Source: Escherichia phage vB_EcoM_VR7. From it: 64,000 bases of DNA. Each line of letters starts with the position of its first letter. The stretch's first letter is position 1. The translations under genes were made by a program, and so were the position numbers. The stretch is from sequence record NC_014792.1; one strand, given 5' to 3'. Shown piece after piece: positions 33,997-34,551 of this stretch. The notes under the pieces were generated by a model. The model worked only from the letters and a program-made list of their open reading frames with translations. It was not told where the DNA came from and did not search any database.

Positions 33997-34551
33997 TTAC
34001 CGGTAGCGACCCGGTTTCTTGTTTGGTATTTCAAATTGCGTAGATTTAGTATCTAATTTTTTAACTATGGAACTTATGTCATGAAAGAAAAACCATTCAC
34101 CATTTATATGGTCCTGATTATAAATGGTGTGCATATATTTTTCAAGTTCTACTGCATCCTGGGAATATCTAAATGATACTATTTTAAAACTTTTAAAAGG
34201 TGAAAATGTATTTGCTGCTATAGCTCTAACATCGGGTTCTATACTTCTTCCTATTTTATAATAATTAGGATTTGTAGTGTCTACCATTATGTATACAAAA
34301 GCTTGTCGATAACTTTTTTCTATATCGAATTCATCTTTAAATTTCAATAGATTTAGAGCAGCCGTTCTACAAAATATTCCCCATATCGACGAGCGTTTAG
34401 CTTCGGTCATCGAAAAGAATTTTTTCTTATCTATGATTTTAAGAAAAGCCACCTTTTCAATTAGTTCTTGTGTTATTTCAAAATTACCATGGTATATTAA
34501 TCCAGCTTTTATAGCCAAATTAATTTGGTCCCAGTCTACATCACTTCTCAT
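33997..34551 (-). CDS. T5orf172/GIY-YIG-superfamily-like protein
   Basis: 184 aa; FVYIMVDTTNPNYYKIGRS...R...E...H......GEWFFF; AT-rich; inside tRNA locus. Confidence 0.5.
   Translation of the reverse strand: MRSDVDWDQINLAIKAGLIYHGNFEITQELIEKVAFLKIIDKKKFFSMTEAKRSSIWGIFCRTAALNLLKFKDEFDIEKSYRQAFVYIMVDTTNPNYYKIGRSIEPDVRAIAANTFSPFKSFKIVSFRYSQDAVELEKYMHTIYNQDHINGEWFFFHDISSIVKKLDTKSTQFEIPNKKPGRYR

Follow-up and report, generated by a model that had tools for sequence, protein, structure and literature searches.

The 184-residue open reading frame (ORF) immediately downstream of tRNA-Arg in Escherichia phage VR7 is probably a freestanding homing endonuclease gene of the T5orf172 type, the product of which would target the tRNA-Arg region and co-convert the neighbouring tRNA allele. 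T5orf172 genes are believed to make up a large group of phage homing endonucleases, few of which have been tested, and such genes, like homing endonucleases in tRNA clusters, are known already. What is new here is the strict position at tRNA-Arg, maintained in seven genera, and the complete linkage of the gene to one particular tRNA allele. The VR7 gene can be seen as an expected kind of phage element at a site that had not been described before. For the gene itself, we infer nuclease activity, target, homing and mode of expression from the comparisons set out below.

Within the window, the whole 64,000-nucleotide stretch of VR7 DNA that we analysed (NC_014792.1), there is a single T5orf172-type gene. 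It has an ATG start, and its end coordinate in Table 1 includes the stop codon. In the direction of transcription the order is tRNA-Met, 4 nt, tRNA-Arg, 19 nt and then the ORF, with the 19-nt spacer running from the CCA end of the tRNA to the start codon. The original prediction of a 184-aa ORF directly downstream of tRNA-Arg is therefore borne out, both genes being on the minus strand, and the motifs on which it was based can all be located in the translation: FVYIMVDTTNPNYYKIGRS corresponds to residues 85–103, followed by E137, H141 and GEWFFF (residues 151–156). Relative to orthologs that differ at 5–19% of nucleotides, the dN/dS ratio of the ORF is 0.11–0.12, which indicates that the 184-aa protein is under purifying selection. 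The ORF is a genuine gene; the Pfam and PHROG matches described below together with dN/dS exclude a chance reading frame.

Table 1 Features of the tRNA-Arg/nuclease locus of phage VR7 (positions refer to the window).
Feature	Coordinates	Strand	Basis
Putative homing endonuclease ORF, two-domain T5orf172-type (GIY-YIG superfamily), 184 aa	33997..34551	-	ORF and Pfam/PHROGs
N-terminal four-helix domain (predicted), residues 1–75	34327..34551	-	AlphaFold2 model
C-terminal T5orf172/GIY-YIG nuclease domain (predicted), residues 84–156	34084..34302	-	Predicted secondary structure and 160-protein conservation
Segment absent from T4 and VR25, 543 bp: spacer and ORF up to '...TTTGAAATACCA'	34028..34570	-	BLAST breakpoints, junction sequences
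tRNA-Arg(UCU), variant allele, anticodon loop CCUCUAA (C33)	34571..34647	-	ARAGORN, Rfam (63.7 bits)
tRNA-Met(CAU), upstream neighbour, same transcription direction	34652..34726	-	ARAGORN, Rfam
Species 2 RNA (rnaD) homolog; T4 segment between tRNA-Arg and rnaC, 125 nt	33898..34023	-	92% T4 alignment, T4 annotation, junctions
rnaC (species 1 stable RNA) homolog	33759..33897	-	T4 rnaC coordinates moved through the 92% alignment
Hairpin and T-run AGCCCCTTCCGAAAGGTTGGGGCTTTTTT, likely terminator of the tRNA/nuclease/stable-RNA unit	33681..33711	-	Sequence reading

The proposed resemblance to the T5orf172 branch of the GIY-YIG superfamily was upheld by profile searches. Residues 85–155 match Pfam MUG113 (PF13455; E = 2.7e-8, 34.7 bits vs. 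a cut-off of 22.3) and T5orf172 (PF10544; E = 8.5e-6, 26.7 bits vs. a cut-off of 20), so that both models are past their curated gathering thresholds. In PHROGs, the full-length match is to phrog_5032 (function unknown; 5.5e-59), and weaker matches are to families labelled endonuclease or homing endonuclease; PHROG 5032, labelled 'unknown', would thereby gain a likely function. No NCBIfam model matched the 184-aa protein. Close relatives are few: a word-index search of 5.8 billion proteins returned only 12, at 53–94% identity. When 1.84 billion cluster representatives were searched exhaustively with a profile, 2851 proteins with the same C-terminal domain emerged, only 28 of which scored at E ≤ 1e-10; the full-length two-domain relatives are among those 28.

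To score conservation, 160 diverse T5orf172 proteins from this profile search were mapped onto the family HMM. The near-invariant positions, all of which are kept in the VR7 protein, are Y87, K99-I100-G101, R109, E137, H141 and G151-E152-W153, each conserved in 131–160 of the 160 proteins, together with P118. An AlphaFold2 model built on a 13-sequence alignment (pLDDT 90.8, pTM 0.85) consists of an N-terminal four-helix domain (residues 1–75) and a beta-beta-alpha-beta-alpha domain (residues 84–156), and has a C-terminal tail of low confidence. The second domain has the GIY-YIG core of a three-stranded sheet with flanking helices, and the best fold matches of the model are all GIY-YIG nucleases, with SLX1 ranking first, followed by I-TevI, UvrC and EndoII. 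The predicted fold is, in other words, the one that the original prediction called for.

The predicted elements of the nuclease domain run in the order beta1 (Y87), beta2 (Y98-K99-I100-G101), alpha1 (R109), beta3, alpha2 (E137, H141) and G151-E152-W153-F154. In I-TevI, the catalytic residues are Y6 (the GIY tyrosine), R27 at the start of helix 1 and the metal-binding E75 in helix 2. Since Y87, R109 and E137 sit in the secondary-structure elements that match those of the GIY-YIG catalytic Tyr, Arg and Glu, we infer by secondary-structure position in the model that they would be equivalent to I-TevI Y6, R27 and E75, respectively. This equivalence is positional because sequence-level comparison with solved GIY-YIG proteins failed: searches of solved structures with the single protein or with the family profile gave nothing useful, and hhalign produced no alignment between the family and the I-TevI catalytic domain, the latter represented by an approximate sequence. 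With Y87, R109, E137 and E152 as putative catalytic residues, the complete T5orf172 catalytic signature appears to be retained. The N-terminal four-helix domain is presumed to be the target-recognition (DNA-binding) domain; no DNA-binding fold could be assigned to residues 1–75.

Escherichia phages VR26 and VR25 (Gaprivervirus, Tevenvirinae) match the region at 97% identity, which on sequence identifies the window as that of a Gaprivervirus-like T-even phage. ARAGORN and Rfam find only two tRNAs in the 64 kb, tRNA-Met(CAU) and tRNA-Arg(UCU), both on the minus strand. Rfam returned nothing over the window other than these two, and the rnaC and rnaD homologs were placed via the T4 annotation, with positions 33681–34029 showing 92% aligned identity to T4. 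In T4, eight tRNAs are transcribed together with the species I and II RNAs, of which species I is the last before the transcript ends (PMC2330249). It is by position, together with this published statement on the transcript, that we assign the segment following the insertion to species 2 RNA (rnaD); a hairpin at 33999–34015 is the first hairpin of this homolog. The part of the locus that comprises rnaC and the distal hairpin (33681–33897) is 97% conserved between genera. The distal hairpin with its T-run is likely the terminator of the transcription unit, judging from its sequence, and phage e11/2 has an annotated terminator at the corresponding place; a simple hairpin scan left it out, the loop or a mismatch being beyond the rules of the scan.

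The ORF is wedged tightly into this arrangement at both ends. Upstream, the 19-nt spacer has a GAGA Shine-Dalgarno-like element and is too short for a promoter, so that the ORF is likely co-transcribed with the tRNAs; from the layout of the sequence, it would most likely be transcribed within the tRNA precursor. Downstream, the ORF lacks a stop codon of its own and reads 7–9 codons into the RNA gene, where it meets a TAA just past the first hairpin. A stop inside the RNA gene fits the protein alignment, in which homologs part ways after F-x-[ILM]-P, as well as a model in which the tail has low confidence.

Comparison with gene-less relatives defines the insertion precisely. In T4 and VR25, the CCA of tRNA-Arg is directly followed by AA(T/C)(G/A)AGAA(A/G)CCGGGTCGCTACCGGTAAGTCG, and in the window this empty-site sequence, ending in CCGGGTCGCTACCGGTAAGTCG, comes after '...TTTGAAATACCA' at the end of the ORF. 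Because the same flank follows CCA in T4 and VR25 and TTTGAAATACCA in the window, positions 34028–34570 are inserted sequence, with tRNA-Arg on one side and the species-2 RNA on the other. The insertion point is exactly after ACCA-A of tRNA-Arg, and ACCA(AA) is present at both ends of the 543-bp insert. This repeat may be a target-site duplication, but ATA-CCA also encodes the conserved C-terminal Ile/Leu-Pro of the protein family. The downstream junction is base-identical in the window, ESCO10, LF82-9 and teqskov, and the flank past the junction is of the resident type: the window and ESCO10 share AACAAGAA with VR25, and LF82-9 and teqskov share AATGAGAA with T4.

To chart the distribution of the gene, we queried phage records with the 1061-bp locus and with the insert alone. 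The locus query matched 1258 records, a total that includes unrelated phages matching only the tRNA-Met part (T-even records with the flank number around a thousand), and the occupied configuration is present in only 15. The insert alone matched 30 records: 14 coliphage records from four genera at 94–98%, three records at 81% (AV110, ECO111 5-P and ESh27), and, for the remainder, T4-like phages of Serratia and Klebsiella at 67–70%. Carriers in the 94–98% group include VR26 (Gaprivervirus), ESCO10 (Dhakavirus) and LF82-9 (Mosigvirus), as well as teqskov, UFV-AREG1, REP2/3, sutha, TB004, BCH953P2 and 236Ecol005PP (Tequatrovirus where examined or self-named). Between Gaprivervirus, Dhakavirus, Mosigvirus and Tequatrovirus the gene is 94.6–97.8% identical, with neighbouring protein genes either absent or only ~77% identical. 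The Serratia and Klebsiella homologs (Winklervirus, Jiaodavirus and Muldoonvirus) share 53–60% amino acid identity with the VR7 protein and occupy the same place after tRNA-Arg(UCU). VR26, PS2 and Muldoon were the only relatives that a scan of IMG/VR gave. The gene starts 15–22 nt past tRNA-Arg(UCU) in all the loci examined, namely those of the window, VR26, ESCO10, LF82-9, teqskov, UFV-AREG1, AV110, X20 (Winklervirus), KpV477 (Jiaodavirus) and PS2 (Muldoonvirus).

Taken at the level of sequence, this distribution bears the hallmarks of a freestanding homing endonuclease gene, one that would recently have moved between lineages, although a sporadic distribution on its own could also be explained by repeated loss. 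The idea that the gene may be the local mobile element is strengthened by the comparison of tRNA loci, which reveals presence or absence at one fixed site, with clean empty sites in T4 and VR25 and a 94–98% identical gene at one junction in four genera. An associated suggestion, that the tRNA set is correspondingly small, did not hold: VR25 and VR20 lack the gene and also have two tRNAs at the examined locus, and the numbers of tRNAs in carriers are two (the window, VR26, ESCO10 and AV110), six (teqskov) or ten (LF82-9 and UFV-AREG1).

The tRNA-Arg preceding the gene is itself distinctive. Across the four carrier genera of coliphages this allele is 98.7–100% identical, and BLAST of the carrier allele against the tRNA-Arg of VR25 or T4 gave no match. 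A database search with the 77-nt tRNA found the allele at ≥97.4% in exactly the 14 records that have the gene at ≥94%, the next best tRNA being 85.7% identical; allele and nuclease gene are thus in complete linkage (14/14 records). Since the identity between the window and LF82-9 stops at the 5' end of tRNA-Arg, the travelling unit consists of tRNA-Arg plus the nuclease gene and measures ~620 bp (34028–34648). The tRNA-Met(CAU) gene belongs to a block that VR7 shares with VR26 and ESCO10 and lies outside this minimal mobile unit.

The anticodon arm of the carrier allele is altered, with a swapped 31–39 pair and C33 replacing the near-universal U33 in the loop CCUCUAA. AV110, whose copy of the gene is the 81% variant, also has C33 in the linked allele, and the loop is CUUCUAA in the alleles of five non-carriers (VR25, VR20, T4, e11/2 and UGJNEcP1). 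On sequence, the pattern would fit an immunity polymorphism, but not a general one: Serratia and Klebsiella carriers have U33, and as the feature is absent from those carriers, C33 is no general immunity determinant. The 16-nt C33 anticodon arm was found at 9 loci, compared with 118 for the U33 version, and six unrelated viral contigs, rich in tRNAs but lacking the nuclease, have it in tRNA-Arg(UCU). A universal immunity change at position 33 was rejected on both counts. We also considered a T5-like phage as the source of the linked tRNA-Arg allele and rejected it, the tRNA-Arg of the T5-like phage NR01 not being notably similar.

According to the explanation that we consider likely, the VR7 enzyme would act during mixed infection and cut the DNA of a related, gene-less phage in its tRNA-Arg region. 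Recombination with the carrier genome would then mend the break, and this repair would copy the nuclease gene along with the adjacent variant tRNA-Arg allele, the ~620-bp segment being the minimum transferred. The variant tRNA-Arg could be a cleavage-resistant allele, useful cargo, or both. Expression of the ORF would be from the tRNA precursor, with the stop codon supplied by the downstream RNA gene. A bolder version of the same explanation, which we put forward tentatively and regard as doubtful, is that the nuclease and the variant tRNA-Arg(UCU) together make up a two-gene selfish cassette. The enzyme would in that case be one of a family of T5orf172 endonucleases with tRNA genes as homing sites and would cut the ordinary tRNA-Arg of competing T-even phages, and the linked allele would be immune and possibly also cargo that escapes host anticodon nucleases. 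If true, such enzymes in T4-like and T5-like phages would be a main force acting on the carriage and exchange of tRNA genes.

Other roles for the protein have to be weighed against homing. It could be an active site-specific nuclease used in warfare, cutting competing phages or satellites and kept for the benefit of the phage; we judge this unlikely, even though the only T5orf172 protein that has been tested biochemically, ICP1 Odn, is an anti-satellite nuclease with a homing-endonuclease-like domain (PMC8263062). PADLOC gave weak matches to candidate defence proteins with the same domain (PDC-S57, 5e-5; PD-Lambda-1, 5e-3), and a dN/dS of ~0.12 would suit a useful gene. The strict position at the 3' end of tRNA-Arg in seven genera and the co-transfer of the tRNA allele, however, are predicted by homing and not by exclusion, and the N-terminal domain is without similarity to replication-initiator or satellite proteins. 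Exclusion of competitors and homing are, moreover, not mutually exclusive. The gene could also be passive cargo, spread by general recombination or by other enzymes that cut at tRNA ends, such as SegB, with its own product not being the driver. The same junction is occupied by VR20_146 (79 aa) in VR20 and by a 114-aa ORF in UGJNEcP1 and AV110, and with at least two small ORFs unrelated to the VR7 gene present there, the site may attract insertions in general, as a hotspot that other enzymes create. The cut made by T4 SegB falls directly 3' of CCAR at tRNA 3' ends, that of T2L tRNA-Arg among them, which would give exactly such an insertion point (PMC2330249). Against this stand the complete nuclease signature, kept under purifying selection, and the finding that every homolog, across seven Tevenvirinae genera and the T5-like phages, lies in a tRNA cluster, which is hard to achieve without a target preference of their own. 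We therefore consider passive spread very unlikely.

The least probable of the readings, in our view, is that the protein has been domesticated and would bind DNA or RNA without cleaving, perhaps to regulate the tRNA/stable-RNA operon or the processing of RNA. The gene lies within an RNA operon, UniRef names homologs 'Bacteriophage T5 Orf172 DNA-binding domain', and the idea accords with T5orf172 having first been described as a DNA-binding domain; domesticated relatives of endonucleases have reportedly been found in phage satellites (title of bioRxiv 10.1101/2020.11.28.402263). Such derivatives typically lose catalytic residues, whereas Y87, R109, E137 and E152 are all kept in the VR7 protein, and the gene is sporadically distributed and not core.

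The homing explanation has several implications. A T5orf172 gene has spread through at least four genera of T-even coliphages, with older relatives in three more. With T-even genetics, a unit of 620 bp and sites that are naturally empty, VR7 and its relatives would make a tractable system for T5orf172 homing, and this system could reveal the recognition target as well as the movement of tRNA alleles between phages.

How does the VR7 gene compare with known systems? The closest parallels are in the tRNA clusters of T5-like phages. T5.069 (172 aa, with a T5orf172 domain) aligns with the VR7 protein over both domains (29% identity over residues 14–170, E = 3e-15) and, judged by its length, is probably the ORF behind the Pfam name T5orf172. 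It lies between tRNA-Cys and tRNA-Asn, and its 3' end overlaps tRNA-Asn. In TrudiRoth, tRNA-Lys and tRNA-Asp contain the ends of paralogs annotated as 'putative homing endonuclease', and the closest T5-like homolog, from NR01 (39% identity), has its ORF end inside tRNA-Arg(UCU). Among the T4-like carriers, the ORFs of X20 and KpV477 end 10 nt inside tRNA-Thr. A stop codon inside the next stable-RNA gene thus appears from these sequences to be a recurring trait of the homologs. T5.069 and the T5-like paralogs share with the VR7 gene the two-domain architecture over the whole length, the same Pfam domains and a location squeezed into a tRNA cluster with the 3' end running into the next RNA gene. 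They differ in belonging to Demerecviridae rather than Straboviridae and in their neighbours, which are tRNA-Cys and tRNA-Asn in T5 and tRNA-Lys in TrudiRoth; in NR01, tRNA-Arg(UCU) is downstream of the ORF, whereas in VR7 it is upstream. No biochemical test of T5.069 or the T5-like paralogs was found in the literature searched.

Barth et al. (2023, PMC10448857) regard T5orf172 genes as those of putative homing endonucleases, numerous in ICP1, in T5-like phages and in some others but absent from T4. Homing by the ICP1 genes has not been experimentally verified according to the same study. Cleavage of DNA in vitro was shown for the ICP1 protein Odn (Gp88), and is abolished by the E180A substitution of the glutamate that aligns with the I-TevI catalytic glutamate (Barth et al. 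2021, PMC8263062). Odn and the other ICP1 proteins resemble the VR7 protein in having a C-terminal T5orf172 nuclease domain and an N-terminal specificity domain; the ICP1 T5orf172 proteins also have the conserved Arg and Glu, and their presence likewise varies between close relatives. Unlike the VR7 protein, Odn has an N-terminal domain that is a copy of RepA_N, and its target is the origin of replication of a satellite. In addition, the ICP1 genes cluster near essential protein-coding genes, whereas the VR7 gene adjoins a tRNA. Neither study discusses tRNA-linked T5orf172 members (PMC10448857, PMC8263062), and we found no published description of a T-even T5orf172 gene.

The other obvious comparison is with SegB of T4, the GIY-YIG enzyme to which the original prediction likened the VR7 gene. 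SegB recognises GGTTCRANTCC, in the T-psi-C arm of tRNA genes, and brings about near-100% inheritance of the region (PMC2330249). In a proposal by Brok-Volchanskaya et al., the expression of SegB and of the T5 HNH endonucleases is limited by RNA processing where the ORF runs into the next RNA gene (PMC2330249); by analogy, processing at the junction between the ORF and the RNA may limit expression of the VR7 gene too. As a mobile element in the same locus, next to tRNA-Arg and belonging to the GIY-YIG superfamily, SegB is a good analogue, down to the likely co-transcription with the tRNA precursor and an ORF end that is tied to the processing of the next RNA; the dragging along of flanking tRNA genes is a feature that SegB has in its own right. 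The likeness does not extend to relatedness. BLASTP of the VR7 protein against SegB gave no meaningful alignment (E = 0.72), leaving no detectable sequence similarity between the two. SegB has an N-terminal nuclease domain followed by a C-terminal NUMOD3-type DNA-binding region, whereas the nuclease domain of the VR7 protein is C-terminal. With no homology and a reversed domain order, the VR7 protein falls outside the T4 Seg family (SegA–G), and segB is absent from the carriers examined for it. The two genes also lie on opposite sides of tRNA-Arg, with segB immediately 5' of it in the T4 annotation and the T5orf172 gene occupying its 3' end in VR7. Given the lack of similarity, the reversed domain order and the opposite positions, two unrelated branches of the GIY-YIG superfamily have colonised the two sides of one and the same tRNA gene.

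The junction 3' of tRNA-Arg looks like an insertion hotspot, as other T-even phages carry different small ORFs at the same position, directly after the CCA of this tRNA. VR20 has a 79-aa ORF there and UGJNEcP1 a 114-aa ORF, the sole domain match of which is a weak, sub-threshold one to DUF2654. In AV110, a counterpart of the UGJNEcP1 ORF is placed after the nuclease gene. The coordinates of these and the other features of the region are listed in the table.

Features of the tRNA/nuclease region and its surroundings in the window and in related phages
Feature	Genome	Coordinates	Strand	Remark
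Recurring short intergenic sequences	window	32678-32736, 33051-33178, 33554-33667, 33681-33711		
tRNA-Arg(UCU)	window	34571-34647	-	structurally unusual
tRNA-Met(CAU)	window	34652-34726	-	
139-aa ORF	window	34734-35153	-	directly upstream of tRNA-Met
Four consecutive small ORFs	window	35896-37097	-	77-99 aa
79-aa ORF	VR20	1244-1483		after tRNA-Arg CCA
114-aa ORF	UGJNEcP1	2300-2644		after tRNA-Arg CCA
Counterpart of 114-aa ORF	AV110	1139-1483		after nuclease gene

Relative to the window, ESCO10 is missing 33756-33899, which is nearly exactly the homolog of rnaC (species 1 RNA), and VR26 is missing 33756-34018, comprising the homologs of both rnaC and rnaD. As a consequence of the latter absence, the VR26 nuclease ORF is extended to 219 aa and ends in an unrelated tail. 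The absence of rnaC in one relative and of both genes in the other implies that natural isolates can do without both stable RNAs. Between the small ORFs that follow the stable RNAs, short intergenic stretches (30-130 nt) are repeated several times in the window, and likewise in VR26, VR25 and ESCO10. These repeats are probably promoter or terminator modules flanking exchangeable ORF cassettes. The 139-aa ORF next to tRNA-Met, without a match in Pfam, is common only to the window, VR26 and ESCO10 (97-99.5% identity) and is missing from VR25, T4 and Mosigviruses, making it a further variable cassette in the locus. Beyond it, the four consecutive small ORFs have similar N-termini (MKTYQEFINE in two of them, MQTLHEFLVEN and MKTFNELFNE in the others), which we take to be a capsid-targeting sequence. 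The matching genes in VR26 and VR25 carry the annotations Ip6, Ip5 and Ip9, which are internal head proteins, and this segment is the known polymorphic IP locus.

The structure of tRNA-Arg(UCU) is unusual. In its anticodon loop, CCUCUAA, C33 takes the place of the almost invariant U33; the T-loop, UUAGAAU, does not have C56, and the D-loop does not have the GG pair. The C33 arm is present again in six unrelated viral contigs rich in tRNAs, there too as part of tRNA-Arg(UCU) genes, and among IMG/VR loci it is found nine times (vs. 118 for the U33 version). Escape from host anticodon nucleases has been proposed as a role for phage tRNAs with altered anticodon loops. The T-arm of tRNA-Met(CAU) is GGAUCGAAACC, the usual form being GGUUCGAAUCC, and it deviates from the core GGTTCRANTCC recognised by T4 SegB. 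This CAU tRNA could be of the tRNA-Ile2 type, which is how the CAU tRNA of T4 is annotated.
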